Origin: Candidatus Woesebacteria bacterium GW2011_GWB1_33_22
GTDB taxonomy: Bacteria; Patescibacteriota; Microgenomatia; UBA8517
Direction of reading: 5' to 3'
Assembly: GCA_000989765.1 (NCBI GenBank)
Contig: LBOW01000002.1
Coordinates: 6,843-70,842, forward strand
Length of the DNA: 64,000 nucleotides
Shown: positions 3,776-61,318 of the stretch, piece by piece
How positions within the stretch are numbered: the stretch's first letter is position 1
Layout of the letters: each line of letters opens with the position of its first letter
Translations under genes and position numbers: made by a program
Notes under the pieces: generated by a model
Database searches by the model: none
Told to the model about the DNA's origin: nothing
What the model saw: the letters and a program-made list of their open reading frames with translations, nothing else

Positions 3776-3832
3776 TGTAAACGTACGCTCTACCTGCCGG
3801 CAGGCAGGTCTAACCAACTGAGCTAAATGTCC
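3776..3832 (-). pseudogene. truncated tRNA-Val-like 5' half (acceptor + D-arm + anticodon 5' stem) interrupted in the D-stem by the GC-rich palindromic element
   Basis: Reverse complement GGACATTTAGCTCAGTTGGTTAGA[CCTGCCTGCCGGCAGG]TAGAGCGTACGTTTACA matches the first ~35 nt of adjacent tRNA-Val; no 3' half. Confidence 0.5.
3793..3808. repeat. GC-rich palindromic element copy (16-nt version cctgccggcaggcagg) inside tRNA-Val remnant
   Basis: Same core as the 20-bp palindrome at 13924, 18472, 26403. Confidence 0.8.
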
Positions 3833-5652: not shown

Positions 5653-5733
5653 GCTCCCGTGGCGAAATGGCAGACGCGTACGGTTTAGGACCGTATTCCT
5701 TACGGAGTAGAAGTTCGACTCTTCTCGGGAGCA
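5653..5733 (+). tRNA. tRNA-Leu(TAG), type II
   Basis: GCTCCCGTGGCGAAATGGCAGACGCGTACGGTTTAGGACCGTATTCCTTACGGAGTAGAAGTTCGACTCTTCTCGGGAGCA; anticodon loop TTTAGGA; T-arm AGAAG-TTCGACT-CTTCT. Confidence 0.85.
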
Positions 5734-5882
5734 CTTTTTTTTGTTATATTAAATTTATGGATGTAATTCACACTTTCAAAAAAAGTGATAAAGGCACATT
5801 AGGAGTCTTTCTATTATTTATTCCTATCGTTGTTTTTTTTACTGTACTTGCAATTTTTAAGATATTAAACTAATATTAAATT

Positions 5883-6413
5883 ATGAAACTTAAGCTTTTA
5901 ACTTTTTTTATACTTTCTTCATTGATAATTGTCCCTTCAGTATCTTCACAAACAGCAACACCACTTAGTAGAAAACAAATTGTGACTGAAAAGGTAGCTT
6001 CCAGACAGGCTGAGATAAGATCTAAAATATCTGCAGTAAGAAGAGAGAGAATAAGAAATTATTTTGGCAAAATGGTGGTTAGAATTGAAGCAACCATTGA
6101 AAGACTTCAAATTTTAATTGATAGAATTGAAACAAGAATAGCAAAGATTAAAGAGGGTGACGAAGAGATAAATACTACTGAGGTAGAAATAACAGTTACA
6201 GACGCCAAGGAAACTTTGGAGAAAGCTAAAACTGAACTTGATAACTTAAAAACAAATCTAGAAGATATGCTGGCATCTGACAACCCCAGAGATAATTTTC
6301 AAGACGTGAGAAATTCTTTAAAAACTGTGATTGGTTACATTAGAGAAGCGCACAAATCACTGGCTATTGCAATCGGTAACATAAAAGGACTTAGAGTAGG
6401 AGACTTTAAATAA
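5883..6413 (+). CDS. secreted coiled-coil hypothetical protein
   Basis: Signal-peptide-like N-terminus MKLKLLTFFILSSLIIVPSVSS; heptad-rich charged sequence. Confidence 0.55.
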   Translation: MKLKLLTFFILSSLIIVPSVSSQTATPLSRKQIVTEKVASRQAEIRSKISAVRRERIRNYFGKMVVRIEATIERLQILIDRIETRIAKIKEGDEEINTTEVEITVTDAKETLEKAKTELDNLKTNLEDMLASDNPRDNFQDVRNSLKTVIGYIREAHKSLAIAIGNIKGLRVGDFK

Positions 6414-6649: not shown

Positions 6650-7120
6650 ATGTTTAAACAAATCTTTCTCCCCCTTATTGCAGTTGCAGTTTTTATTACT
6701 CTGGTAGGATTACTTGGTCAGGGCAAACTTACTCCCAAAGTTAGTTTAAAAACTATTAAAATAGACAATCTTGAAATTAGTGTAGAGGTGGCTAAATCTG
6801 CAGATGAAAGAGCAAAAGGTCTTTCAGGCAGAGAAAAATTAGATGAAAATAGTGGAATGGTTTTTGTTTTTGATAAAAACTCTAAACCTGTTTTTTGGAT
6901 GAAAGATACGCTTGTTGCTCTTGATATTATTTGGATCAATGACAATAAAATTATTAGAATTGAAAAAAATGTACAACCTGAAATAGGTAAGACTGATTCT
7001 GAACTCAAAAAATATACTGCTCCATCAATAGTTGATTATGTATTGGAAGTTAATGCTGGTTTTGCTGACAAAAACAATATTAAAATTGACCAAATGATAT
7101 CCGGTCTTGAACAACTTTAG
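6650..7120 (+). CDS. DUF192 domain protein
   Basis: GLSGREKLDENSGMVFVF...FWMKDTLVALDIIWIN...VDYVLEVNAGFA pattern of DUF192/COG1430. Confidence 0.8.
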   Translation: MFKQIFLPLIAVAVFITLVGLLGQGKLTPKVSLKTIKIDNLEISVEVAKSADERAKGLSGREKLDENSGMVFVFDKNSKPVFWMKDTLVALDIIWINDNKIIRIEKNVQPEIGKTDSELKKYTAPSIVDYVLEVNAGFADKNNIKIDQMISGLEQL

Positions 7121-12622: not shown

Positions 12623-14452
12623 ATGAATATCAGAAACGTTGCAATTATTGCCCATGTTGACCATGGAAAAACCACTTTAGTGGATGCTCTTTTGCGCCAA
12701 TCACATACTGAAATGGGTAAAAGTGATGCAGGACAAGAAGCTATTTTGGATTCAAACGAACTTGAACGAGAACGAGGAATTACAATTTTTTCCAAAAATG
12801 CTTCAGTAATGTACAAAGACACTAAAATAAACATCATCGATACTCCAGGACATGCAGACTTTGGTGGAGAAGTTGAACGTGTTCTTTCTATGGCAGACGG
12901 TGCCTTACTTTTAGTTGATGCTAAAGAAGGACCAATGCCACAAACCAGATTCGTCCTTCGCCATGCACTCAAAATGGGTTTAAAAATAATTGTTGTTGTA
13001 AATAAAATTGATAAAAAGGGAGTTCGTTCTGAGTGGGTTCAGGGAAAAACCTTTGACCTTTTTGTTGAACTAGGTGCTGATGAATCAACCGCATTTTTTC
13101 CAACAATTTATGCCAGCGGGAGAGATGGAGTAGCAGGTTATGAACCAGACCTTGTTAAAATGAAAGATATTACACCTATTTTTGAAGAAATTATTAAATA
13201 CATTCCCGCACCCTCAGGAGATCCTGAAAAACCACTTCAAATGCTTGTCAGTAACATTGGTAAAGATAATTACAAGGGAAGAATTGCTATTGGAAAAATA
13301 AAAAATGGGAAAATATTACTAACAGAAGATGTAATTCATATTAATAGAGAGGGAGTACAAAAAAGAGCAAAATTAACTTCAATTTTTACTTTTAAAGGTT
13401 TAACAAAACAAGAAGAAAAAGAAGCCTTTGCTGGTGATATTGTTTCTGTTACTGGAATTTCTGACGTAACAATTGGAGAAACAATTGCTAGTTTAGAAAA
13501 TCCAATAGCTCTTCCTTTAATTTCAATTGAGGAGCCAACAGTTAAAATGGTCTTTTTAGTTAACGACTCCCCATTTGGTGGACATGAAGGAGATTTTAAA
13601 ACAAGTAGTCAAATCCGAGCGCGACTCTATAAAGAACTTGAAACTGACGTTGCTTTAAAAGTTGAAGATAACTCAGACGGGACCTGGACTGTATCAGGTA
13701 GAGGAGAATTACACTTAGCAATTTTGATTGAAAGAATGAGAAGAGAAGGATATGAATTTTCAGTTTCAAGACCTCATGTTATCAATAAAACAATTGACGG
13801 CAAAATTCATACTCCGTATGAAAAAGTATATATTGATGTACCAGAAGAGTTTTCAGGGGTAGTTATTCAACATATGGGAATTAGACACGGCAAGATGGAT
13901 GATATGAGTATTAATGAGAATAGCCTGCCTGCCGGCAGGCAGGTTTCTTTGGAATTTACAGTATCTACAAAAGAACTTATAGGTTTCAGGGGTGAACTTA
14001 TTACAGATACCAAGGGAATGGGAATAATTAATACTGCTTTTTTTGACTATTTACCAGATGATGGCTTTGAAAGGGAAAGGGATAGGGGCTCAATGATAGC
14101 TTACGAAACAGGGGAAACAAGGTTATATGGTTTAGTTAATGTTCAAGATCAAGGTCAACTTTTTGTAAGCCCTGCAGTTAAAGTCTATAAAGGCCAGGTT
14201 GTAGGACAAAATTCAAGAAGTGGCGATATGGTAGTTAATGTTTGTAAAGAAAAACAATTAAGTAATATGAGAAGTAAAGGTGATGGATCAGCAGAACACT
14301 TTAATACACCTAAAGTTATGGGCTTAGATGATGCTTTGGAATATATTGATGACACAGAACTTGTAGAAGTAACTCCAAAATCAATTAGGATCAGAAAAGT
14401 AATCTTAGATGAAGTTGAAGCCCGTCGCAAAAAATCAATGGGGATTAAATAA
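12623..14452 (+). CDS. typA: translational GTPase TypA/BipA (contains in-frame palindromic-element insertion at 13924-13943)
   Basis: AIIAHVDHGKTTLVDALL G1 motif, DTPGHADF, NKIDK; 609 aa. Confidence 0.95.
   Translation: MNIRNVAIIAHVDHGKTTLVDALLRQSHTEMGKSDAGQEAILDSNELERERGITIFSKNASVMYKDTKINIIDTPGHADFGGEVERVLSMADGALLLVDAKEGPMPQTRFVLRHALKMGLKIIVVVNKIDKKGVRSEWVQGKTFDLFVELGADESTAFFPTIYASGRDGVAGYEPDLVKMKDITPIFEEIIKYIPAPSGDPEKPLQMLVSNIGKDNYKGRIAIGKIKNGKILLTEDVIHINREGVQKRAKLTSIFTFKGLTKQEEKEAFAGDIVSVTGISDVTIGETIASLENPIALPLISIEEPTVKMVFLVNDSPFGGHEGDFKTSSQIRARLYKELETDVALKVEDNSDGTWTVSGRGELHLAILIERMRREGYEFSVSRPHVINKTIDGKIHTPYEKVYIDVPEEFSGVVIQHMGIRHGKMDDMSINENSLPAGRQVSLEFTVSTKELIGFRGELITDTKGMGIINTAFFDYLPDDGFERERDRGSMIAYETGETRLYGLVNVQDQGQLFVSPAVKVYKGQVVGQNSRSGDMVVNVCKEKQLSNMRSKGDGSAEHFNTPKVMGLDDALEYIDDTELVEVTPKSIRIRKVILDEVEARRKKSMGIK
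13924..13943. repeat. GC-rich 20-bp perfect palindrome CCTGCCTGCCGGCAGGCAGG, in frame in typA (codes LPAGRQ)
   Basis: Perfect self-complementary 20-mer, ~75% GC in ~33% GC context. Confidence 0.9.
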
Positions 14453-14492
14453 CACCCTAATACGGACACCCTGTTGTTTCAGCCTTCAATAG

Positions 14493-14527
14493 CAAGGACC
14501 AACCCTGTGATTCAACCCTGTGATTCA
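14493..14527. repeat. REP-like palindromic doublet (caaggaccaaccctgtgattc aaccctgtgattca)
   Basis: Same architecture as repeats flanking RAYT gene at 59974-60050 (CAAGGACCAACCTTGTGATTAA + CTTGTGATTAA). Confidence 0.6.
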
Positions 14528-17916: not shown

Positions 17917-18960
17917 ATGGGTGATAACCTCATAAATTTAAAAAACCAAGCTATTGCACAAATATCGGAGGTCAGAGATTTAACTGAACTTGAACAGATA
18001 AGAATTAATCTGTTCGGAAGAAATGGAAAATTTAACGCTATTTCAAAAGAAATTGCTAAAGTCGCAATTGAAGAAAAAAAGCAGTTTGGAATTACTTTAA
18101 ATGAAGTTAAAAATACTTTAGAAGAATTAATTCAAATCAAGAAAAATGATTTAACCAATTCAGCTCGTGTCTGGTTTGACCCGACAATGCCTGCTAAAAA
18201 AAATAAACTAGGTAAAATTCATTTTGTTTCCAGGGCAATTGATGAAATATCATCAGTTTTTGAAAAAATTGGTTTTAGTAGAGTTAGATATTCTGAAGTT
18301 GAATGGGATTATTTTGCCTTTACTGCTTTAAATTTTCCTGTAAATCACCCAGCAAGAGATGATTGGGAAACTTTTTTTGTAGATTTACCTGAATCAAAAA
18401 AATATGGGTCAATGCTTTTAACACCTCACACATCAAGTGGTCAAATAAGGGAAATGTTATCGAGGCAAGCCCTGCCTGCCGGCAGGCAGGCTCCTATTAG
18501 AATGATTAATATAGCTAAGTGTTATAGAAGACAAAGTGATATTAGCCATGTTCCCATGTTTCACCAATTCGAAGGATTAGTAGTTGATAGTAATATTAAT
18601 ATTACAAATTTAAAAGGAACACTTGATTACTTTGCCAAAAGCTTTTTTGGTAAAAACAGAGAAACAAGATTAAGACCTTATCATTTTCAATTTACTGAAC
18701 CGTCATTTGAAGTAGATATCTCCTGTAATGTCTGTGATGGACGAGGTTGTAAATTATGTAAAGAAGGCTGGCTTGAGATAGGTGGCGCAGGAATGGTCCA
18801 TCCTAATGTTTTAAGAAATTGTAAAATTGATCCTAATGTCTATTCAGGTTTCGCTTTTGGTTGGGGAGTTGAAAGAGTTGCCATGATGAAATCTGGGCTT
18901 TCTGTGCCTGATGTAAGACTTTTATATAGTTCAGACTTACGTGTTTTGTCACAATTATAA
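17917..18960 (+). CDS. pheS: phenylalanine-tRNA ligase alpha subunit (contains in-frame palindromic-element insertion at 18472-18491)
   Basis: Class II motifs, ...FQFTEPSFEVD..., GWGVERVAMM; 347 aa. Confidence 0.95.
   Translation: MGDNLINLKNQAIAQISEVRDLTELEQIRINLFGRNGKFNAISKEIAKVAIEEKKQFGITLNEVKNTLEELIQIKKNDLTNSARVWFDPTMPAKKNKLGKIHFVSRAIDEISSVFEKIGFSRVRYSEVEWDYFAFTALNFPVNHPARDDWETFFVDLPESKKYGSMLLTPHTSSGQIREMLSRQALPAGRQAPIRMINIAKCYRRQSDISHVPMFHQFEGLVVDSNINITNLKGTLDYFAKSFFGKNRETRLRPYHFQFTEPSFEVDISCNVCDGRGCKLCKEGWLEIGGAGMVHPNVLRNCKIDPNVYSGFAFGWGVERVAMMKSGLSVPDVRLLYSSDLRVLSQL
18472..18491. repeat. GC-rich 20-bp palindrome CCTGCCTGCCGGCAGGCAGG in frame in pheS (codes LPAGRQ)
   Basis: Identical to copies at 13924 and 26403. 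Confidence 0.9.
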
Positions 18961-18962
18961 TT

Positions 18963-20909
18963 ATGGATATATTAATACCTGACAGCTGGCTAAGAAGGTT
19001 TTTAGATACTAAAGTTAAACCTGATGAAATTGCAAAGTATTTGTCGCTTTGTGGACCTTCAATTGAAAGAATTAAAAAGACAAAAGATGAAGATTATATA
19101 TACTCTGTTGAGATAACTACAAACAGGGTTGACTGTGCATCTGTTTTAGGAATAGCTAGAGAAGCTAGTGCAATCTTACCTAGATTTGGAATCTCAGCTA
19201 AATTAAAAATTAAGAAAGAAGAAATAAAAAATAAATACGACTTTAAAAACAAAGTAAAATATCTTGATGCAATAGTTGATTCAAAACTTTGTCCCAGATT
19301 TACTGCGGTACTAATTAAAAATGTCAAGTTAAAAGATTCTCCAGAGAAAATTAAAAATATGCTTTTAAAAGTTGGTGTTAGACCAATCAATAATCTTGTA
19401 GATGTCAGCAATTACATCATGCATGAGCTTGGTCAACCTGTTCATACTTTTGACTATGACAAGATAGTTGGTTCAAAGATGATACTCAGAGAATCTAGAG
19501 TGAATGAATTAGTAACAACATTGGACGGGAAAAAATTTAAATTAGACGGGGGAGATATTGTTATTGAAGACGGAAGTGGAAAACTTATAGACCTTTGTGG
19601 AATCATGGGGGGGGAGAATTCTGCAATTGATTCTTCTACAAAAAATGTTTTGTTGTTTGTTCAAAACTATAATAAACATGTGATCAGAAAAACTTCAATG
19701 AAATTAGACTTACGAACTGAAGCTGCGGTTCTTTTTGAAAAAGGCTTAGATAGTGAAAATATTAAACCAGCAATTCTTTTGGCAATAGATCTAATAGAAA
19801 AACTTTCGGGAGGAAAGACAGAAAAAGAAGTTTTAGATATTTATCCGAAGTCTTATAAAACAAAAATGATTAAGGTGGATAAACTAAGAATAGATAAAAT
19901 TATCGGCATTGAAATAAGTACTAAAGACATTAGTAAATATTTAAAAACCTTAGGCTTTGAAGTTTACTTGCAAGGTGAAACCCTGCAAGTTACAGTTCCC
20001 TCATGGCGGGCAGATGATATAGATATTCAAGAAGACATCGCGGAAGAAATAGCTAGAATTTATGGTTATCACAATTTGCCGTGTATTTTAATGGGCGGAG
20101 AACTTCCCAAACCCCAATCTACAAACAATTTTAAAGTAGAATTAGATGTAAAACAAATATTAAAGTCTCTTGGCGGATTTGAAATATATAATTTATCTCT
20201 AGTTGAAAAGGGCCAATTGAAACTTAGTAATCCATTAGGACCAGATTCGGGATACTTAAGAGATAACTTGAAAGATTCTCTCATACAAAATATTAAAGAT
20301 AACCCACAGGAAAAAAATTATATACATATATTTGAAATGGCAAATGTATATTTAGCTCGTAAAAATGATTTACCAGAAGAAATATTGACTCTAGCGGGAA
20401 TTATTAAAAACGGTGACTATAGAAAAAGCAAAGGCATTGTACAGACGCTACTAAAAGAACTTTTGATCGACTATACTGAAAAACTTGAAGACGGTAAAGG
20501 CTATTTCCCCAACCAAAGATTAGAAATATATTCAGATAAAGAAAGGATTGGAGAATATGGAAATTTGGAAAATAATTTATTTACTTACGAATTTGACATG
20601 CAAAAATTGATAAACTGTAAAAAAACAAATACAAAATTTAAAGAAGCTTTTAAATACCCACCACAGGTTGAGGATTTAACTTTAGTCATTCCAGAAAAAA
20701 CATACGTCGGAGAAGTTATGAAGTTTATTTCGGATTTCGATATTCGTATTTCGAATTTAGAACTGATTGATATTTATCAAAATAATTACACTTTTAACAT
20801 TGAATATCAAGATGAAAACAAAACTTTAACGGATAAAGAAGTGAAGGAAATTAGAAATAAAATTTTAAGTGAATTAAAATCAAAATTCGGAATAACTATT
20901 AAGGGGTAG
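18963..20909 (+). CDS. pheT: phenylalanine-tRNA ligase beta subunit (short form)
   Basis: B3/B4 and B5 domain pattern, C-terminal anticodon-binding-like domain; immediately follows pheS. Confidence 0.9.
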   Translation: MDILIPDSWLRRFLDTKVKPDEIAKYLSLCGPSIERIKKTKDEDYIYSVEITTNRVDCASVLGIAREASAILPRFGISAKLKIKKEEIKNKYDFKNKVKYLDAIVDSKLCPRFTAVLIKNVKLKDSPEKIKNMLLKVGVRPINNLVDVSNYIMHELGQPVHTFDYDKIVGSKMILRESRVNELVTTLDGKKFKLDGGDIVIEDGSGKLIDLCGIMGGENSAIDSSTKNVLLFVQNYNKHVIRKTSMKLDLRTEAAVLFEKGLDSENIKPAILLAIDLIEKLSGGKTEKEVLDIYPKSYKTKMIKVDKLRIDKIIGIEISTKDISKYLKTLGFEVYLQGETLQVTVPSWRADDIDIQEDIAEEIARIYGYHNLPCILMGGELPKPQSTNNFKVELDVKQILKSLGGFEIYNLSLVEKGQLKLSNPLGPDSGYLRDNLKDSLIQNIKDNPQEKNYIHIFEMANVYLARKNDLPEEILTLAGIIKNGDYRKSKGIVQTLLKELLIDYTEKLEDGKGYFPNQRLEIYSDKERIGEYGNLENNLFTYEFDMQKLINCKKTNTKFKEAFKYPPQVEDLTLVIPEKTYVGEVMKFISDFDIRISNLELIDIYQNNYTFNIEYQDENKTLTDKEVKEIRNKILSELKSKFGITIKG

Positions 20910-25989: not shown

Positions 25990-27930
25990 ATGAACACAAA
26001 TAAGCTTCAATTAACTGACCCTGTGAATATTATCCCATTCGTTGGTCCAAGTTTTGAAAAAAAATTAAAAAAATTAGAAATTATTACAGTTTCTGATCTA
26101 TTACATCACATTCCAAACAGATACTTGGATTTTTCTAAATTTACAAAAATAAAAAATATTAAAATTGATGAAGTTGTTTCAATATTTGGAACAATGACTT
26201 TTATCAAAAATCAACCAACAAAGTCCGGAAAATTAATGCAACTAGGAACTTTAGAAGATGAAACAGGAACTATTAATATGGTTTGGTTTAACCAGTTTTA
26301 CCTGGCAAAGATGCTATTTCCAGGAACTAAACTAATTATTTCAGGAAAAGCTTCTTGGTTTAACCGAAAGTTAGCTTTTTTTTCACCTCAGTATGAAAAA
26401 ATCCTGCCTGCCGGCAGGCAGGGGATTAATACAGTTCATACAGGTAAAATTATCGGGGTTTACTCTCAGACCTCAGGAATTACCAATAAATGGCTTAAGG
26501 CAAGAATTAAATATGCACTGGATCGAATTAAGATTGAAGAGTTTTTAAATAATAAATTAGGTTTATTAAATTTTGAAGATGCAATCAAAAAAATTCATTT
26601 TCCTAAAACTTTTAAAGAAGCCGAAAAGGCAAAGGAACGGCTTGCTTTTAACGAATTTTACAATTTATTAATAACGGCAAAAGAGCGAAAAAGAAAATTA
26701 CTAAAAAAAAGAGGTGTGGCTCTAATTGTTGACCAATTAACTGTTAACAATTTTATTGATTCTTTGCCGTTTAAACTTACCGATTCGCAAAATAAAGTTA
26801 CAAAAGAAATACTTTCTGATTTAGAGAAAAATATTTCAATGAATAGACTTCTGCAAGGTGATGTAGGAAGTGGAAAAACTGTTGTGGCTACAGTAGGGGC
26901 TTTTGCAACATTTTTAAATGGCTACCAAACTATATTTTTAGCTCCAACTCAAATACTTGCAAACCAGCATTACCAAACATTAAATAGTCTTTTTAAAAAT
27001 TATAAAATTAGAATATCTCTAATTACTGGAAGTAGTATTAAAAAAGATGAAGGAATATCTGACATAATAATCGGAACGCATGCCTTACTTAATAGAAAGT
27101 TTGAAAAGATCGGTTTATTAATAATTGATGAACAACATAAATTTGGTGTTAAACAAATTAATTTTTTACAAAAGAAAAATCCTCATACATTGACAATGAC
27201 AGCAACTCCAATCCCTAGAACCATAGCACAAACTTTATTTTCGGACATGGATCTTTCAATTCTTGATGAAATACCAGAAAATAGGCCAAAAATTAAAACC
27301 TGGCTAGTTCCTAATGAGAAACGAAGTAAGGCCTATGACTGGATCTCTTCACAAATCACTAGTCACAAATCACAGTGCTTTATTATTTGTCCCTTAGTTG
27401 AAGAATCGGAATCAGAAACGCTAAAATCTGTCAAATCGGTCAAAAAAGAATTTGGTAATTTAAAGTTAAAATTTAAAAAATTAAAGTTAGGACTTCTGCA
27501 TGGAAAACTTAAAGAAAAAGATAAAAACAAAGTATTAGACGATTTTAAAAACCGAAAGATTGATATTTTAGTTTCAACACCAGTAGTTGAAGTTGGGATT
27601 GATGTGTCAAACGCAACGATTATGTTAATTGAGGCAGCTGACAGGTTTGGTCTAGCTCAACTTCATCAATTAAGAGGCCGTGTTGGACGCGGTAAATCCG
27701 AATCCTACTGCCTTTTATTTACTGAAAACGAATCGGAAAAGGCGACCCAAAGACTTACAGCATTAACGAAATTTTCTTCTGGTTTTGAACTTGCAGAGTT
27801 AGATCTTAAACTCCGTGGGGCAGGTGAAGTCTTAGGAACAAAACAGTCAGGTTTTGGTAACCTAAAAATTGCCGATTGGTCCGACACTAAACTAATCAAG
27901 CTTGCATCAGAAGCAGTGAACAATGTATAA
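25990..27930 (+). CDS. recG: ATP-dependent DNA helicase RecG (contains in-frame palindromic-element insertion at 26403-26422)
   Basis: Wedge domain, Walker A GDVGSGKT, DEQH box, helicase C motifs QLHQLRGRVGRG. Confidence 0.9.
   Translation: MNTNKLQLTDPVNIIPFVGPSFEKKLKKLEIITVSDLLHHIPNRYLDFSKFTKIKNIKIDEVVSIFGTMTFIKNQPTKSGKLMQLGTLEDETGTINMVWFNQFYLAKMLFPGTKLIISGKASWFNRKLAFFSPQYEKILPAGRQGINTVHTGKIIGVYSQTSGITNKWLKARIKYALDRIKIEEFLNNKLGLLNFEDAIKKIHFPKTFKEAEKAKERLAFNEFYNLLITAKERKRKLLKKRGVALIVDQLTVNNFIDSLPFKLTDSQNKVTKEILSDLEKNISMNRLLQGDVGSGKTVVATVGAFATFLNGYQTIFLAPTQILANQHYQTLNSLFKNYKIRISLITGSSIKKDEGISDIIIGTHALLNRKFEKIGLLIIDEQHKFGVKQINFLQKKNPHTLTMTATPIPRTIAQTLFSDMDLSILDEIPENRPKIKTWLVPNEKRSKAYDWISSQITSHKSQCFIICPLVEESESETLKSVKSVKKEFGNLKLKFKKLKLGLLHGKLKEKDKNKVLDDFKNRKIDILVSTPVVEVGIDVSNATIMLIEAADRFGLAQLHQLRGRVGRGKSESYCLLFTENESEKATQRLTALTKFSSGFELAELDLKLRGAGEVLGTKQSGFGNLKIADWSDTKLIKLASEAVNNV
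26403..26422. repeat. GC-rich 20-bp palindrome CCTGCCTGCCGGCAGGCAGG in frame in recG (codes LPAGRQ)
   Basis: Identical to copies at 13924 and 18472. Confidence 0.9.
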
Positions 27931-34123: not shown

Positions 34124-34969
34124 TTATTTTACAACACCACTTGCACTAAAGATACTATTTTCAAAAATCGGGGGAGCTACCTTATAAGTCTCATAGACTT
34201 CTATTTTTCTGTTAGCTCCTCCAAATGATCCAGAAGAAATAACTTTATTCCCTTGAGATGGAAGCAGTCCAAACCCTGTTACATCAATTCCAATTTTGTG
34301 GGCAACTGTAGTATTGTATAATATTCTAACATTGGCATATTTAAGATCTGAATTTGCCCCAAGGCTTGCCAAATTAACGTTAGTTTCAAATTCAAAATCT
34401 TCATTTTCAATTGTGCAATTTGAGTTGACAGAATCAAAACCATTTGATTCGGCTCTTGCAGAATTGGGGTCAAATACTGCTCTAGCAATTTGCAGGTTAG
34501 AAATATCACCATAATAAACAGTAAGCTCTATTGCAGGTGCAAATCCATCAACAGGAGTATCAGAATCTCCCCAACAGAAAGTAACCTGATTGCCATCAAA
34601 TTGTGAATCACCAACAACGCCTTGATGAGGAGCAAACCAAAATACGGCAATTTCCCCGGATTTTAAACTAACAGGATAAACGACACTTGTTTCTCCTTGT
34701 CCAAAACTTGAAACATTTGCTTCAAAATTTGCTCCACCTATTTCTGAAGGACCAGTAGAACCTAATATCAAGGCCCTCTCGATACCTGCCTCTGCCGCTG
34801 AAAAAGCACGTAAGGAATCTTCCTCTTTTGAAGAAAGTGAAAGATCAGTAACTGAACGAGACATGATATATAAAACGATAATCAAAACGACAGAAAGTGA
34901 AAGAAGAACTATTAAAACAGCTTGACCTGCTTGCCGGTAGGCAGGGCCCTCATTATTTCTTGACTTCAT
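34124..34969 (-). CDS. PilX-like pilus-associated protein (N-terminal TM + AFSAAEAGIERAL motif), carries variant palindromic element near 5' end
   Basis: PilX_N-like ...SLRAFSAAEAGIERAL...; element encodes PAYRQAGQ at residues 9-16. Confidence 0.55.
   Translation of the reverse strand: MKSRNNEGPAYRQAGQAVLIVLLSLSVVLIIVLYIMSRSVTDLSLSSKEEDSLRAFSAAEAGIERALILGSTGPSEIGGANFEANVSSFGQGETSVVYPVSLKSGEIAVFWFAPHQGVVGDSQFDGNQVTFCWGDSDTPVDGFAPAIELTVYYGDISNLQIARAVFDPNSARAESNGFDSVNSNCTIENEDFEFETNVNLASLGANSDLKYANVRILYNTTVAHKIGIDVTGFGLLPSQGNKVISSGSFGGANRKIEVYETYKVAPPIFENSIFSASGVVK
34926..34945. repeat. variant copy of GC-rich palindrome (CCTGCTTGCCGGTAGGCAGG; two C->T changes giving G.U-compatible positions)
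   Basis: 18/20 identity to CCTGCCTGCCGGCAGGCAGG; in frame in minus-strand CDS. Confidence 0.8.
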
Positions 34970-36154: not shown

Positions 36155-36802
36155 ATGGCACGGGCTACTAAAATATTACTTTTCTTTTTATTTTCAATTT
36201 CAGTCTCAACCACAGCCTATTTGGCCTTTAGATATTATAAAGAAACCAGGATTCCACAAGAAAATCTTGAACTTAATTTAACTGGAACCATCAAAAAAGG
36301 TAAAGATATATCACCTCAAAAAGATTATTGTCCAAACGAACTCTACATTGTAACTAAAGATAAAACATACCAATTAAGAACCCCCGACAAAAGAAATGAA
36401 AAAGCCTCAATAGTTTATGCAAAATACCGTGATCTTGAAGTTTCTCTGAAAGCCAAATTTAATGATATTTTACCAAACAACGATCCAAGAAAGAAAAATT
36501 GTGCCTCCGATCAATTTATTTTAGTTGAAAAAATTAACAGTAACAATAAAACAACATCAGTTTTTAATTCATACTCCGGCAAAATTTCTTGCCTACCTTT
36601 ACTTAATGGAGAACAAGTAAATTCTTCAGACTGTGCCTTAGGATTAGCTACAAATGATGGAAAATATTATATTTTGGAAGATATTGCTGATGATTTTATA
36701 ACTCAAGGCAAGGAAATTAATTTAACAGGGGATTTATCAAATGAAAAAACAATTTCAAATTATAAAATTGACGGAGTCATAAGCGTGATTGAAGTGAAGT
36801 AA
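36155..36802 (+). CDS. secreted hypothetical protein
   Basis: N-terminal signal/TM MARATKILLFFLFSISVSTTAYLAF. Confidence 0.5.
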   Translation: MARATKILLFFLFSISVSTTAYLAFRYYKETRIPQENLELNLTGTIKKGKDISPQKDYCPNELYIVTKDKTYQLRTPDKRNEKASIVYAKYRDLEVSLKAKFNDILPNNDPRKKNCASDQFILVEKINSNNKTTSVFNSYSGKISCLPLLNGEQVNSSDCALGLATNDGKYYILEDIADDFITQGKEINLTGDLSNEKTISNYKIDGVISVIEVK

Positions 36803-36806
36803 AACA

Positions 36807-36975
36807 TGATATAATTTGAATATGACAAAAGTTCAAAAAATATACAAAAAATATTTATCAAATAAAAAAAAGAATTCTGCATTAGATTTTTTTAAATCTT
36901 TCATGCCTGAAATGATTTACAGAACAATGAAACTTGAGGGAGAACCGTCAACAAGACGAAGAATTTTATCTCTAT
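36807..36975 (+). repeat. direct repeat copy A (~135-165 bp) carrying extended -10 TGATATAAT and a 53-codon ORF
   Basis: Near-identical to 37664-37800 except a 24-bp segment absent from copy B. Confidence 0.7.
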
Positions 36976-36983
36976 TTACATAA
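36822..36983 (+). CDS. small ORF within repeat copy A (53 aa), immediately upstream of fic
   Basis: MTKVQKIYKKYLSNKKKNSALDFFKSFMPEMIYRTMKLEGEPSTRRRILSLFT; truncated to 28 aa in copy B. Confidence 0.3.
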   Translation: MTKVQKIYKKYLSNKKKNSALDFFKSFMPEMIYRTMKLEGEPSTRRRILSLFT

Positions 36984-37656: not shown

Positions 37657-37663
37657 TAAACTG

Positions 37664-37800
37664 TGATATAATTTAAATATGACAAAAGTTCAAAAAATAT
37701 ACAAAAAATATTTATCAAACAAAAAAAAGAATTCTGCATTAGATTTACAGAACAATGAAACTTGAGAGGGAACAAATAACAAGAAGGCAAGTTTTATCGA
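37664..37800 (+). repeat. direct repeat copy B (promoter TGATATAAT + truncated small ORF) upstream of NYN gene
   Basis: See copy A. Confidence 0.7.
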
Positions 37801-37817
37801 TATTTTAAACAAACTGA

Positions 37818-54791: not shown

Positions 54792-56513
54792 TTACTCTTG
54801 AGCTACCCTTAATACTTCTTCAATACTTGTTATACCTTCAATAACTTTCAAATATCCGTCCTGTTTTAATGTTATCATACCTTCTTCTTTTGCTCTCTTC
54901 TCAATTTCTGAGGCAGGAGATCTTTCTAATATTAGCTTAGCAATTGCATCAGTTACTGGCAAGACCTCAAATACTCCGACTCTGCCATAATAACCAGAAT
55001 TGCCACAAGCTTCACAACCCTTACCCCTATAAAGTTTTACATCTTTTGCAGATGGCCAGAGTGGGCCCAAGACAGTTTTAATATCTTCAATAATTTTAGG
55101 ATCAGGGGTATAACTTTCCTTACAATCATCATGAATTTTACGAGTCACTCGTTGGGCCATAATCGCTGTCATAGACGAAGCCAGAAGATATGGTTCTGCA
55201 CCCATATCTAAAAGGCGGGGGAGAGCGCCAGAAGAATCATTTGTATGTAAAGTTGAAAACACCAAATGTCCAGTTAGAGAAGCTTGAACTGCCAAATCTG
55301 CAGTTTCTTGGTCTCTAATCTCTCCAACTAAAATGACATTGGGGTCTTGTCTTAAAAAAGATTTAAGTCCAGAGGCAAAAGTTAAGCCTACAGCAGGATT
55401 TATTTGAACCTGATTGACCCCAACCATTTTATATTCGATAGGGTCTTCAAGCGTAACAATATTTACTTTCGGTGTATTAATACGAGCAATAATTGAATAA
55501 AGAGTTGTAGTTTTTCCAGAACCAGTTGGTCCACAAATCAAAATAATTCCATGAGGCCTTAAAATTGCATCTTGCAAGTTTTTAATTGCTTTTCCACGAA
55601 GCCCTAGTTCTGGAAGGTCGGGGACACCTCCTGTTTTTTTAAGAAGTCGCATAACAATCTTTTCTCCCCAAGATGTGGGAAGAGAGCTTACACGAAGATC
55701 AGTATCCTGATCATTAGCTTTAAAGTTAAATCTGCCATCTTGAGGAATTCTTTTCTCATCAATTTTCATACCCGCCAAAATTTTTACTCTTGAGATCAAT
55801 GATTCATGAAGTTCTTTTGGAATTGTTAATTTTTCCTGTAAAATACCATCAATTCTGTACCTTACTCTAGTTGATTTTTCTTGAGGTTCTATGTGAATAT
55901 CAGAAGAACGACTTTTAACGGCAAATTCTAGGATGTGACTTACAATCTCTGAAATTTTTTCTTCTCTGATAAAACCAATTTTAAAATTTTCGCTGGCACT
56001 TGTTTTTTTCTCAGGTGCAACATCTTTTAAAGCCTCTGTTACTTCTTGTGAGAGAGAAGTGGCATAACGAATAGTTATCGCTTCCATGATTTTTTCTTCT
56101 TCGGAAGCCATAGGTTTAACTCTAAATCCAGTTTTACGTTCAACAAACTCAATTGCAGTCAAATCAAGTGGGTCAGCCATGGCAAGGGTCAAACTTTTAC
56201 TTTGCCTATCAGCGTTAACAGGAAAAACTTTAAATTTAGAAGCAACCTCTTGAGGTAAAACAGACATAGCTTCAGGAGATGATGGTGAATTTAAAATATC
56301 AAGGTAGGGAATATTATAAAGAACAGCTTTAGCTTTAACTAAAACTTCATTTCCTACCAAATTTTGTTTTTTAATTATTTCTTCCTGAGTAGAACCATAC
56401 TGAACTTCAGCCATTTTAACCTGTTCAGCACGTTTAGAGTCCATTGCCCCCATTGAAACTAAAATATCAGCTAAGTTGTTTCCGACAGGCACTACGTTGG
56501 CAGTATTAGGCAT
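54792..56513 (-). CDS. pilB: type IV pilus assembly ATPase PilB (GspE family)
   Basis: N-terminal GSPII domain, Walker A GPTGSGKTT, tetracysteine CxxC...CxxC (CKESYT...CEACGNSGY). Confidence 0.9.
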   Translation of the reverse strand: MPNTANVVPVGNNLADILVSMGAMDSKRAEQVKMAEVQYGSTQEEIIKKQNLVGNEVLVKAKAVLYNIPYLDILNSPSSPEAMSVLPQEVASKFKVFPVNADRQSKSLTLAMADPLDLTAIEFVERKTGFRVKPMASEEEKIMEAITIRYATSLSQEVTEALKDVAPEKKTSASENFKIGFIREEKISEIVSHILEFAVKSRSSDIHIEPQEKSTRVRYRIDGILQEKLTIPKELHESLISRVKILAGMKIDEKRIPQDGRFNFKANDQDTDLRVSSLPTSWGEKIVMRLLKKTGGVPDLPELGLRGKAIKNLQDAILRPHGIILICGPTGSGKTTTLYSIIARINTPKVNIVTLEDPIEYKMVGVNQVQINPAVGLTFASGLKSFLRQDPNVILVGEIRDQETADLAVQASLTGHLVFSTLHTNDSSGALPRLLDMGAEPYLLASSMTAIMAQRVTRKIHDDCKESYTPDPKIIEDIKTVLGPLWPSAKDVKLYRGKGCEACGNSGYYGRVGVFEVLPVTDAIAKLILERSPASEIEKRAKEEGMITLKQDGYLKVIEGITSIEEVLRVAQE

Positions 56514-56543: not shown

Positions 56544-59055
<2,512 letters not shown>

Positions 59056-59301
59056 TTTAAGGTTTAGTATCACCTTCAAGAAGTTTTTGTAAACGTTCAA
59101 TATGTTCTTCCATTTGACCTATTAGTTCAAATTCTTCAATTTTTTCTCTAATTATTTGTTCTAAACTTCGATGGGTCGTTTTTTGAATACTTAAAATTCC
59201 CTCGATTATTATGTCATCCGCCCCTCTTTTTTAAGGTCTTTTTCATTCATTAAATATTATTTTAATATCATTTTTTCATATTGCTAATTTTGTAACGAAA
59301 T

Positions 59302-59323
59302 AACAAGGTTGGTCCTTGTGATT
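59302..59323. repeat. REP-like palindrome (aacaaggttggtccttgtgatt), inverted orientation relative to downstream copies
   Basis: Reverse complement aatcacaaggaccaaccttgtt matches units at 59974-60050. Confidence 0.65.
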
Positions 59324-59340
59324 TTATGATATCATGAAAT

Positions 59341-59976
59341 ATGCCCGCCAGAAATATATTAAAACAATACCTTTCTGACTCAATTTATCATATTTATAAT
59401 CGAGGAGTAGAAAAACGAATTATCTTTATAGATAATCAAGACTATAAAGTTTTCCTATCTTACATAGAAGAGTATTTAACACCATTACAACAAGGATCAA
59501 CCTTGTTGTATCGAGAACTGACTGGAAAATATTATGGAGAAATAATTCTTTTAGCCTTTTGTTTAATGCCAAATCACTTCCATTTACTTATTAAGCAAAA
59601 GGATAAAGATTCAATCAAAAGGTTTTCAAAATCATTATTTACAAGATATAGCATGTACTTTAATAAAAAATATAAAAGGGTTGGACCACTTTTCCAAAGT
59701 ATTTACAAAGCTACAAATGTAATAGATAAAGAACATTTATTATATATTTCAAAATATATTCATTTAAATCCGTCAGAAAAAGCAAATAAATTAATTGATG
59801 CTTATTCTTCATATTCAGACTATTTGGGAATCACCAATACACAATGGTTAAATAAATTTATTGTATTAACAGAATTTAATAAAAGCTCATATATGAAGTA
59901 CCACAAAATAAAAACATACAAGCAATTCGTTGAGGAGTATAAGGAAGACCTTCCACAATACACGCTGGGCGAATAA
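59341..59976 (+). mobile_element. REP-associated tyrosine transposase (RAYT) / IS200-like Y1 transposase
   Basis: IYHIYNRGVEK..., HUH motif MPNHFHLLI, catalytic Tyr region FTRYSMYFNKKY / YIHLNP; flanked by REP-like palindromes. Confidence 0.8.
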
Positions 59977-60050
59977 TCACAAGAACCACAAGGACCAACC
60001 TTGTGATTAACTTGTGATTAAAGAACCACAAGGACCAACCTTGTGATTAA
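59974..60050. repeat. two tandem REP-like palindromic units (AGAACCACAAGGACCAACCTTGTGATTAA) downstream of RAYT
   Basis: Unit contains nested inverted repeats CACAAGG-ACCAA-CCTTGTG; second partial unit CTTGTGATTAA between copies. Confidence 0.75.
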
Positions 60051-60105
60051 TAAACAATTTGTAGAAGAATATAAAGCAGACATGCCCCAATATGAACCAG
60101 ATATG

Positions 60106-60132
60106 TGAGGGTTCAACCCTCACATTTTTTCC
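60106..60132 (+). terminator. rho-independent terminator TGTGAGGG-ttcaa-CCCTCACA + T6
   Basis: 8-bp perfect stem followed by TTTTTT. Confidence 0.7.
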
Positions 60133-60170
60133 ATATTGCAAATTGAAAGCTACAGATTTAATATCTTCAT

Positions 60171-60710
60171 ATGACACATTTACTGCATGACATCTCTTTA
60201 GGTGAAACGGGGGAAACTGTTAATACATTCGTTGAGATTCCAAAGGGCTCAATGCATAAAATTGAATATAGACATGAGACCAACTTATTTGCATTAGATA
60301 GAGTAGAACCTGATATTTTTGCAAAACCTGTAAATTATGGCTTTATTTCTCAAACTTGGGATGAAGATAATGATCCACTCGATTCATTAATAATTACTTC
60401 TGAACCATTACCAACTGGGGTTTTAGTTGTTGCAAGAGTGATTGGGGTATTAAATTTTGTAGATGGTGGGGAAAATGACCACAAAATAATTTGTATTCCA
60501 GATGATGATAGAAACGATGGAGATACTGTAAATGAGATTACAGATTTACCAGAAGTCTTAAAAGAAAAACTTAAACATCATTTTATGCATTACAAGGACT
60601 TAAAAAAGCCAGGTTCAACTGAAGTTCAAGGTTGGGGAAGTAAAGAAGATGCCTGGAAAATAATTGAGGAAAGTAACAACCGTTATCTTGAAAAGTTCAA
60701 GGCAAATTAA
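60171..60710 (+). CDS. ppa: inorganic pyrophosphatase (family I)
   Basis: ...EIPKGS..KIEY...LDSLI...DGGENDHKII... conserved PPase acidic residues. Confidence 0.9.
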   Translation: MTHLLHDISLGETGETVNTFVEIPKGSMHKIEYRHETNLFALDRVEPDIFAKPVNYGFISQTWDEDNDPLDSLIITSEPLPTGVLVVARVIGVLNFVDGGENDHKIICIPDDDRNDGDTVNEITDLPEVLKEKLKHHFMHYKDLKKPGSTEVQGWGSKEDAWKIIEESNNRYLEKFKAN

Positions 60711-61318
60711 AACAAACTCGCTTGTTCTTCTGTTTCATTTTTAATTACTGGATAGCTAAAATCTACTTCAATTTCCCGAGCCGTATTCCAATAATCTTTG
60801 AAGCGAAGTTTTTTGTTTTTTAATCCATAATCATATATTTCTTTTGTAAGCCTTACGTCTTCTTCACAGTAGAACTTAAGTTTCTTTAGTGATTCTTCAT
60901 CCCTTTTCTGCCAGTAGGCAATTGCATTTGCTGGATCATCCGCTTTATGGTCTCCCAATGTTTCTTTAACAATTGCATTTAAAGATACTCTTCTGCCATT
61001 CACTTCCCTTACATGTTCCAAAATATCAAGATGAGAGATCTTAGTTAACTCTAAAGGTAAGTAGGGCTTTAATGCTGGAACATCAAAATGTTTAGAATTA
61101 AAACCAATAATTCTTGATGCATTCTTAAAATAACCCCAAGAATTGGCAAGTTCGCTTTCAAAGAAAGAAATCATTTCACCTTTAGTTTCAACAAAATTAG
61201 AATCCAAAGTTCTGACATACATCGAAAGAACTGATACCCCAAGATCTGCAGGGTCTGACCCTGTTATCTCATCAAAGAATTTCTGTGTTTCTAAATCAAA
61301 AATTACCTCTTGGTACAT
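60707..61318 (-). CDS. DEDD-family 3'-5' exonuclease
   Basis: Exo I motif VIFDLETQ; later H/D residues; 203 aa. Confidence 0.6.
   Translation of the reverse strand: MYQEVIFDLETQKFFDEITGSDPADLGVSVLSMYVRTLDSNFVETKGEMISFFESELANSWGYFKNASRIIGFNSKHFDVPALKPYLPLELTKISHLDILEHVREVNGRRVSLNAIVKETLGDHKADDPANAIAYWQKRDEESLKKLKFYCEEDVRLTKEIYDYGLKNKKLRFKDYWNTAREIEVDFSYPVIKNETEEQASLF

Follow-up and report, generated by a model that had tools for sequence, protein, structure and literature searches.

A RAYT-like Y1 transposase gene with upstream, in-frame and 3′ copies of its own hairpin in a Woesebacteria genome

The repetitive extragenic palindromes (REPs) of bacteria and the family of REP-associated tyrosine transposases (RAYTs, or TnpA-REP) have been described together (PMC6006769). 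In the E. coli REPtron (Quentin subclass 2.2, Bertels group 2; structure 4ER8), the single-copy RAYT gene occupies a stable locus between its own cognate palindromes, one side inverted, and divergent paralogues each have their own palindrome. In subclass 2.4 (Bertels group 4; Cyanobacteria and Bacteroidetes), the tnpA-REP genes carry in-frame REP insertions in a peripheral loop, and in-frame REPs inside a transposase gene have been described for this subclass only (PMC6006769). For subclass 2.1 (Bertels group 1, overlapping with TIRYT), no REP-like sequences were reported nearby, and the proteins possess a C-terminal helix-turn-helix (HTH)-like domain (PMC6006769). Our literature search found no paper covering such systems in bacteria of the candidate phyla radiation (CPR). 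Here, we investigated 64,000 nt of the CPR genome Candidatus Woesebacteria bacterium GW2011_GWB1_33_22 (contig LBOW01000002.1; this whole stretch is called the window), in which a Y1 transposase gene lies between gyrB and ppa with copies of one hairpin upstream of it, inside its open reading frame (ORF) and at its 3′ end. Our results make it fairly probable, if far from certain, that the gene encodes a RAYT-type Y1 HUH nuclease/transferase of single-stranded DNA from a CPR clade and forms a REPtron-like cassette with a lineage-specific triad of hairpins, which the enzyme would recognise and copy, and that the cassette displaced another allele at its locus.

The gene and its active-site motifs were located as follows.

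59341-59976, plus strand: RAYT-like Y1 HUH gene of 211 amino acids (aa), based on ORF, Pfam, NCBIfam and a structure model
59575-59583, plus strand: HUH motif His79-Phe80-His81 (in PNHFHLL), H79 and H81 being invariant in an alignment of 26 homologues
59755-59757, plus strand: putative catalytic Tyr139 in KYIHLNP, with the Y---NP signature of class 2 TnpA-Y1

The product is a Y1 HUH enzyme of RAYT-like type. An earlier reading of the sequence alone (hereafter the sequence-only reading) had assigned to this gene a Y1 transposase with an HUH motif (HFH) and a catalytic tyrosine, and had named Pfam PF01797 as the check. Both were borne out: HFH occupied residues 79-81, the tyrosine was Tyr139, and Y1_Tnp matched residues 67-141 with 37.2 bits against a cutoff of 23 (E = 3.6e-9). 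The residues of the HUH and Y---NP motifs, the latter being the definition of class 2 TnpA-Y1 (PMC6006769), were invariant across the 26 homologues. On that 26-sequence alignment an AlphaFold (AF2) model was built (pLDDT 82), in which Tyr139 fell in helix 130-146. The best match of the model in the PDB by Foldseek was 4er8_A (probability 1.00, E = 5.9e-6), the E. coli RAYT bound to a REP hairpin, and IS200, IS608 and ISDra2 TnpA structures were among the top matches (probability 0.95-1.00). A PDB sequence search with the family profile gave weak ISDra2 matches only (E about 0.35), so that a structure search was needed to place the protein. The window protein was 100% identical to the hypothetical protein A2130_00715 of Candidatus Woesebacteria bacterium GWC2_33_12 (CPR/Patescibacteria), and two paralogues from the same genome, P0060 and P0100, were 62% and 57% identical to it; A2130_03160 and A2130_03380 are paralogues of A2130_00715. 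At 50% clustering, the family comprised 216 representatives at E<=1e-30 and 5607 at E<=1e-10.

Like the E. coli RAYT, the protein has the Y1 HUH fold and the class 2 tyrosine motif. Its motifs (NHFH, FQ, YIHLNP, and SS in the tail AYSSYSDY) and its length correspond to the second motif set of subclass 2.1 (NH[YF]H, FQ, Y[IV]HLNP, SS; about 210-240 aa) and differ from those of subclass 2.4 (WQ and YIxNNP; PMC6006769). In contrast to subclass 2.1, the Pfam scan detected no HTH/DnaA-C-like C-terminal domain in the window protein, and hairpins are the dominant feature here. IS200 (subclass 1.1) differs in its Y---Q tyrosine motif and in a TnpA of about 150 aa.

The hairpins were first traced with the 19-mer CACAAGGACCAACCTTGTG, which matched five times in the window at no more than 3 mismatches, whereas 0.01 matches were expected from shuffled sequences.

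59300-59322, minus strand: upstream cognate hairpin ATAACAAGG TTGGT CCTTGTGAT, its loop inverted relative to the downstream copies
59302-59320, minus strand: 19-mer copy with 1 mismatch
59486-59510, plus strand: in-frame internal cognate hairpin TACAACAAGG ATCAA CCTTGTTGTA with a 10-bp stem
59489-59507, plus strand: 19-mer copy within the ORF, overlooked by the sequence-only reading
59981-60050, plus strand: 3′ hairpin array of two identical units in direct orientation, with hairpins at 59984-60008 and 60024-60048
59987-60005 and 60027-60045, plus strand: 19-mer copies of the 3′ units
14491-14509, plus strand: degenerate 19-mer copy with 3 mismatches

That REP-like palindromes flank the gene, the upstream one inverted, and that two tandem units follow it had been noticed from the letters, and both the 19-mer scan and a repeat search agreed. 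The 30-nt units (59981-60010 and 60021-60050) were exact direct repeats spaced by 40 nt (repeat family D7). Within the array the 3′ arm plus its tail, CTTGTGATTAA, was duplicated in tandem (60000-60010 and 60011-60021), and a partial copy of the 5′ arm stood just upstream (59974-59983). An Rfam scan of 58800-60400 returned nothing above gathering thresholds. The internal hairpin encodes LQQGSTLLY (residues 49-57), which the AF2 model placed in a low-confidence loop leading from helix 32-46 to strand 68-75, the strand that ends just before the HUH motif. Cognate palindromes on both sides of the gene, one side inverted, recall the E. coli REPtron, and an in-frame cognate palindrome in a peripheral loop recalls subclass 2.4. 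In subclass 2.4, however, the insertion lies between HuH and Y, whereas the main site here precedes HUH and is fixed across the clade; the palindromes here are short and without the GTAG 'double foot', and the host belongs to the CPR. A hairpin on either side of the Y1 gene, in a compact unit of about 0.75 kb, is also like IS200, as is an upstream hairpin that can block read-through.

The same arrangement was found among relatives. A metagenome scan provided 80 related loci of 44-75% identity (designated by L numbers) and 58 non-redundant genes, 57 metagenomic and the window's own. A strong internal hairpin, with a stem of 8 bp or more immediately ahead of the HUH strand, was present in 24 of the 58. 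In these 24 genes the same 19-mer recurred with a mean identity of 0.87 upstream and 0.85 at the stop codon compared with 0.62 for mismatched gene-flank pairs; identities of at least 80% were reached by 79% of the genes upstream and 74% downstream but by 1.5% and 2.5% of the mismatched controls. Overall, 19-20 of the 24 genes were flanked by their own palindromes, the upstream 19-mer starting 31-43 nt before the ATG and the downstream copy anywhere from 31 nt before to 20 nt after the ORF end. Each of the three paralogues of the same genome had a hairpin of its own at the upstream, internal and 3′ sites: in P0060, CTTGCAAGGTGAAACCCTGCAAG preceded the ATG, TTGCAGGGTGAAACCCTGCAA lay within the ORF at the corresponding protein position and CTTGCAGGGTTTCACCCTGCAAG was part of the last codons, and AAGG(G)TGTAACCTTTAAAG was present three times in P0100.

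At least nine hairpin types were distinguished, with the consensus ATTGCAAGGT-NNN-ACCTTGCAAT and a geometry of 9-11 bp of stem and 3-5 nt of loop. Across 41 distinct copies, 92% of the stem cells were paired against 75% in shuffles, and compensatory changes on both sides occurred in 8 of the 10 stem pairs; none of 500 shuffles reached the observed pairing or covariation. Moreover, the similarity of the hairpins followed that of the proteins (Spearman 0.74, reached by none of 2000 permutations). In relatives at about 50% identity or below, the internal hairpin was mostly missing, and the short AT-rich 6-bp stems of distant relatives are common noise. The branch of L076 (5362-6126) and L078 (792-1559), at 44% identity, had its own hairpin, GACAGGTATCATACCTGTC, in four copies per gene. 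Two of them were in frame (TGIIPV), one before HUH and one immediately after the Tyr motif, and this second in-frame copy is a further likeness to subclass 2.4. Tandem duplications of one arm, 11-14 nt where measured, stood beside the hairpins in the window (59974-59983, 60000-60021 and 14500-14525) and in L008, L011, L013, L019, L040 and L078; they may have arisen by slippage or may mark places where DNA was cleaved and rejoined. Several divergent family paralogues occurred within 45 kb on single contigs, namely L057 (two genes on opposite strands), the 549-kb contig Ga0265292_1000015 (L036, L040) and Ga0209210_1000178 (L026, L039), which is dense for genomes as small as these.

The upstream hairpin is fused to a promoter-like sequence, which together with the in-frame hairpin sets the gene apart from the E. 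coli RAYT.

59330-59335, plus strand: -10-like hexamer TATCAT, read by eye, ending 5 nt before the ATG without a Shine-Dalgarno sequence

In the window, the automated pick was TATGAT, which ends 10 nt before the ATG; TATCAT was equally good. In 19 of 20 triad genes, a -10-like hexamer (e.g., TGTATACT or TTGTATAAT) directly followed the upstream hairpin; in 15 of these 19 the hexamer ended 5-6 nt before the ATG, and only 1 of the 20 genes had a Shine-Dalgarno-like motif. This pattern suggests a leaderless mRNA transcribed from an often extended -10 promoter, with the hairpin filling the -35/spacer region, and a hairpin that overlaps the promoter probably gives autoregulation. Pairing of the 5′ and 3′ copies at the RNA level was considered and is unlikely, since the upstream copy lies 5′ of the -10 box and is probably untranscribed, and the copies keep no constant orientation to one another.

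The position of the gene was stable. Its closest orthologues (L008-L012, L015, L016 and L024; 67-75% identity) all stood directly after gyrB, and before ppa where the contig reached that far. Where the protein was identical, all 24 contigs read showed the same gyrB-ppa context, and the five displayed had the same 194-nt gap before ppa. Flanking genes were shared by 41 of 58 gene pairs at 70% identity or more, by 19 of 178 at 60-70% and by about 2% below 60%. All six pairs at 90% or more shared them, and no near-identical copies were seen at non-syntenic places. The paralogues had loci of their own, one beside ATP synthase genes and the other beside a polyprenyl synthase gene. Among population variants, 16 nt differences caused 5 aa changes and 12 caused 3, and so few aa changes per nt difference indicate purifying selection. 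The gene thus looks vertically inherited at the gyrB-ppa locus, like a RAYT rather than a hopping insertion sequence (IS): a stable locus with vertical inheritance is the pattern of domesticated RAYTs (PMC5581495). The E. coli system shares the single-copy gene, the stable locus and the divergent paralogues with their own palindromes, whereas IS200 occurs in several near-identical copies per genome.

Directly after the 3′ array, the remains of a second gene end were found.

60052-60108, plus strand: relic 3′ end KQFVEEYKADMPQYEPDM followed by a stop, in frame with the gene
60103-60131, plus strand: relic hairpin ATGTGAGGG TTC AACCCTCACAT (10 bp; hairpin proper 60103-60125) plus T-run, with a generic motif match at 60106

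The sequence-only reading had described a degenerate second copy of the last codons of the gene and then a strong terminator. The copy was indeed in frame, and in the first 14 codons 9 of its 11 differences from the current tail fell at third positions (P=0.0014), a bias which argues that both tails evolved as coding sequence. The terminator was also detected, as the hairpin 60103-60125 with its T-run; it had escaped that reading that this hairpin is itself of the family type (GAGGGTTCAACCCTC, closest to the L014 type) and belongs to the relic, whose tail runs on into GTGAGGGTTCAACCCTCAC. The relic matched the orthologue tails of L011, L009 and L010 at 36-37 of 45 nt but the window's own tail at 31 of 45. 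Its hairpin stands where L009 has its 3′ hairpin, right ahead of TTTCCAT-TTGCAAATT and the putative ppa promoter. Judged from these alignments, the relic comes from within the same orthologue clade, probably as a 3′ end and hairpin that a displaced allele left behind as a fossil. The upstream, unit-1 and relic hairpins all scored terminator-like, and the relic hairpin probably now serves as a terminator. A strict regular-expression scan of L001-L087 and the window for further relic C-terminal fragments found none and also missed the window's own relic, the pattern being too strict; it did pick out L053 and L054 as 5′-truncated genes.

Near-identical strains differed at the hairpins. L088 (98% protein identity) had a single 3′ hairpin without the second unit or the relic, a difference of 129 nt. 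From the left flank to mid-gene it was identical to the window (445 of 445 nt), after which the 3′ part of the gene was 94% and the right flank 77% identical. L089 (99% protein identity) was identical to the window from mid-gene rightwards, the relic included; leftwards, its likeness to the window ended no more than a few nt from the upstream hairpin's 5′ foot, and the sequence beyond was unrelated. In L053 (5940-6480; the same in L054), a family gene lacked its first ~60 codons, with the breakpoint at the 3′ edge of the internal-hairpin position, and kept its 3′ hairpin in frame (TIAGSDPAI followed by the stop). Taken together, the comparisons indicate that gene and hairpins behave as a cassette which strains exchange, the hairpins being its joints.

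The whole cassette stands between the two copies of an imperfect direct repeat of about 20 nt.

59270-59289, strand not assigned: left copy ATTTTTTCATATTGCTAATT, overlapping a minus-strand promoter-like site (59287-59259) of a small upstream ORF
60124-60144, strand not assigned: right copy ATTTTTTCCATATTGCAAATT, overlapping the sequence read as the ppa promoter

The repeat, with the pattern ATTTTTTC(C)ATATTGC(A/T)AATT, was seen in the window and in L009 (about 5926-5948 and 6674-6695). It falls on promoter-like TTGCAA elements, those of the small upstream ORF and of ppa, which are read on opposite strands, and may be a duplicated target or promoter from the cassette's first entry into the locus. 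The small ORF lies between gyrB and the cassette (window 59060-59250, minus strand; L009 about 5716-5907). In L009 it is intact, with 63 aa and a weak sub-threshold RHH_1 match (13.6 bits), and in the window it is seemingly frameshifted near GAGGGGCGG.

Copies of the hairpins away from the gene were few.

14465-14527, plus strand: decayed solo site after typA, consisting of a half-hairpin, a degenerate hairpin and an arm duplication
19968-19990, plus strand: solo P0060-type hairpin TTGCAAGGTGAAACCCTGCAAGT, in frame in a PheT-matching ORF beside pheS, encoding LQGETLQ

Two solo copies thus occurred in the window, one of the window type and one of a paralogue type. The first had been taken for a solo REP doublet (14493-14527), which did not hold: it consists of one degenerate hairpin, AGCAAGGACCAACCCTGTGATT (14491-14512), whose 13-nt 3′ arm CAACCCTGTGATT is duplicated (14500-14512 and 14513-14525), and is preceded by a half-hairpin of the L009 type, GACACCCTGTTGT (14465-14477). 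The second was identical at 23 of 23 nt to the upstream hairpin of P0060 (L002 2101-2123), the A-C mismatch in the stem included. Simple insertion of this copy was rejected, for orthologous PheT proteins have the same length at the hairpin position. One orthologue reads AGT AAG GGT GAA ACT ATA CAT at the same codons and has only the core GGTGAAAC in common with the hairpin. The unchanged length and the shared core imply that the hairpin was written over existing codons at a micro-homology and not inserted. In the flanks of 19 other loci, up to about 12.7 kb each, 3 exact solos were present, one in L031 and two in L076 (3-5 kb away). A candidate at 61247-61265 in an RNase_H_2/exonuclease-like gene (4 mismatches to the L002 type) was rejected because its peptide is conserved in orthologues. 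Scanning a genome collection that did not include this Woesebacteria genome with CAAGGACCAACCYTGTKATT gave a single match, in the Bacillota metagenome-assembled genome contig JAAYRO010000096.1 (L001 4911-4930), which was attributed to chance, a few such matches being expected by a hand estimate. The earlier proposal that a REP system is active or was recently active in this genome is supported in another sense than it was meant, by the 129-nt indel at the 3′ hairpins, the flank changes at or near hairpins between near-identical strains and the pheT copy; in the sequence covered, dispersed copies were sparse.

Rickettsia palindromic elements, as Ogata et al. in 2000 are said to have reported, are selfish palindromic DNA of 100-150 nt inserted in frame in protein-coding genes. 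The likeness is that in-frame palindromes are tolerated in housekeeping genes of a reduced genome, as with the pheT copy and with an LPAGRQ palindrome in typA and pheS; in contrast, the hairpins here measure 20-25 nt, left the length of pheT unchanged and are tied to a Y1 gene. The LPAGRQ palindrome, CCTGCCTGCCGGCAGGCAGG, is perfect and stands out as a GC-rich element in an AT-rich genome, with five copies in the window (3789-3808, 13924-13943, 18471-18490, 26403-26422 and 34926-34945). Four are in frame (LPAGRQ or PAYRQAG), in typA, pheS, ORF 25990-27930 and ORF 34124-34969 (minus strand), and the TypA copy lies in a loop about 5 residues longer than that of E. coli BipA. Neither the neighbourhood of family genes, searched for CCTGCCTGCCGGCAGGCAGG, nor 283 family proteins, searched for PAGRQ-type peptides, showed an association with any Y1 gene.

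We propose the following course of events. The enzyme would be a domesticated relative of the IS200 transposase in a CPR-specific clade, and each lineage would maintain three fixed hairpin sites, namely upstream of the -10 box, in a surface loop before the HUH strand and at or just after the stop codon. By analogy with E. coli TnpA-REP and IS608 TnpA, the enzyme may recognise hairpins formed in single-stranded DNA. Cleavage and rejoining, or hairpin-templated conversion, would keep the three copies alike, and the same activity would occasionally write copies elsewhere and make the hairpins recombination breakpoints. Since these genomes leave little intergenic space, a dispersed copy can end up in frame within a housekeeping gene. 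An allele with the CACAAGG-ACCAA-CCTTGTG hairpin set would have come into the window's lineage and displaced the resident one, whose last 18 codons (54 coding nt), stop codon and 3′ hairpin would persist as a fossil, now a terminator. A bolder form of this idea, which we regard as improbable but worth stating, is a REP/RAYT system adapted to near-absent intergenic space, in which three 'master' hairpins (for promoter autoregulation, in frame and at the stop) would be combined with length-neutral, template-directed overwriting at a shared short core, and hairpins would act as portable recombination joints for cassette replacement.

Other explanations were weighed against these observations. Chance or low-complexity matches, or assembly artefacts, would suit an AT-rich genome in which 6-bp AT-rich stems are common, but they are effectively refuted by the excess of 19-mer matches over shuffles, by the sameness of the locus across at least 24 independent contigs, which come from several assemblies, and by the same architecture in about 20 independent related loci. 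The tail copy, for its part, might be a local tandem duplication of the gene's own 3′ end and hairpin that decayed afterwards, with no allele replaced. It does adjoin the gene in frame, and partial tandem duplications are common around these hairpins; this origin is nevertheless rather unlikely, as the relic is nearer to the tails of L011, L009 and L010 than to the window's own, its differences are concentrated at third positions, its hairpin is of another type (closest to L014), and L088 lacks the relic and has a diverged right flank.

The whole hairpin-tnpA-hairpin unit of about 750 bp could also be an autonomous IS200-like element that moves by peel-and-paste, and the relic and the mosaics would then record transposition into one and the same site. 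The subterminal hairpins to either side of the Y1 gene, the sharp left boundary of L089 near the hairpin foot with a different left context, the fossil of an earlier copy at the right end and several paralogues per small genome would all fit. We consider it quite unlikely, since the locus is conserved down to 67% identity, near-identical copies are syntenic only (6 of 6 pairs at 90% or more), the paralogues within the genome are only 57-62% identical, the motif is Y---NP (class 2) and not Y---Q, the protein has 211 aa against about 150, no tnpB is present and an internal cognate hairpin would make self-destructive excision likely. Alternatively, the hairpins could be plain cis-regulatory structures (a promoter-blocking cruciform, an attenuator, a terminator), with the Y1 protein acting elsewhere and the likeness of the copies due to a shared regulator or local gene conversion. 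Such roles agree with the upstream copy abutting the -10 box in 19 of 20 genes, the 3′ copies at the stop codon, the terminator-like upstream, unit-1 and relic hairpins and the rarity of solo copies. Yet they leave unexplained the in-frame copy that matches the flanking ones in every lineage, the exact 23-mer of a paralogue in pheT, the exact solos kilobases away in L031 and L076, and the strain mosaics and truncations that break at hairpins, and the closest solved structure is a RAYT bound to such a hairpin; as a full account we find this decidedly unlikely.

Several points weigh against the reading as a RAYT with a hairpin triad. The identification of the protein as a RAYT, proposed from the sequence at the outset, holds for the Y1_Tnp domain and the structural match to 4ER8, but identity to 4ER8 is only 12%, and NCBIfam NF047646 (REP-associated tyrosine transposase) scored 38.8 bits against a cutoff of 80, so that the window protein is no equivalog of the characterised RAYTs. 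The REPIN/RAYT architecture claimed at the same time fell: the 3′ units are direct and not inverted, no GT[AG]G foot was found in the flanks of 57 hairpin copies, and no REPIN-type inverted doublets were seen. In these respects, in the lack of BIME doublets and in its very few dispersed copies, the system differs from that of E. coli. Of the known systems it comes closest, in its way of working, to a RAYT with its REPtron. With so few solo copies, 'repetitive' barely applies, and the triad could persist for reasons unrelated to transposition. The link between protein and hairpin is carried by likeness of sequence and structure. The orientation of the loop varies among the three sites without a rule, which is odd for strand-specific recognition of all three on one strand, and compensatory changes in a DNA palindrome can come from template switching without selection. 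L088 and L089 are short metagenome-assembly contigs and could in principle be chimeric. Finally, the relic could stem from an old local duplication, which the third-position bias opposes without excluding.

Further repeats in the window were noted apart from the cassette. Between 48231 and 52471 (minus strand), a repeat of 41-65 nt (families D1 and D2) occurs six times at spacings of 0.4-1.3 kb; the copies resemble conserved 5′ ends of small pilin-like genes standing in a row, with pilB downstream (54792-56513). At 36800-36977 and 37657-37805, the starts of adjacent genes share stretches of 64-90 nt that are 80-94% identical, the upstream region included (D4 and D5), a pair that from the sequence looks like a recent tandem gene duplication.

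How REPs spread and what benefit RAYTs bring to their hosts are open questions, and the known systems are mostly from Proteobacteria and Cyanobacteria. CPR genomes measure about 1 Mb, and a genome of such size carries at least three divergent paralogues of the present gene, each with its hairpins, which makes it a minimal system. The pheT hairpin, with the length of the gene unchanged, hints at dispersal by conversion rather than insertion, and the natural haplotypes suggest the hairpins as recombination breakpoints. The motifs of the clade match subclass 2.1, which was reported to be without REPs, and the description of that subclass may need revision. Since the three-site architecture co-varies with the protein, it offers cognate pairs of protein and hairpin as predictions of the substrates of these enzymes.

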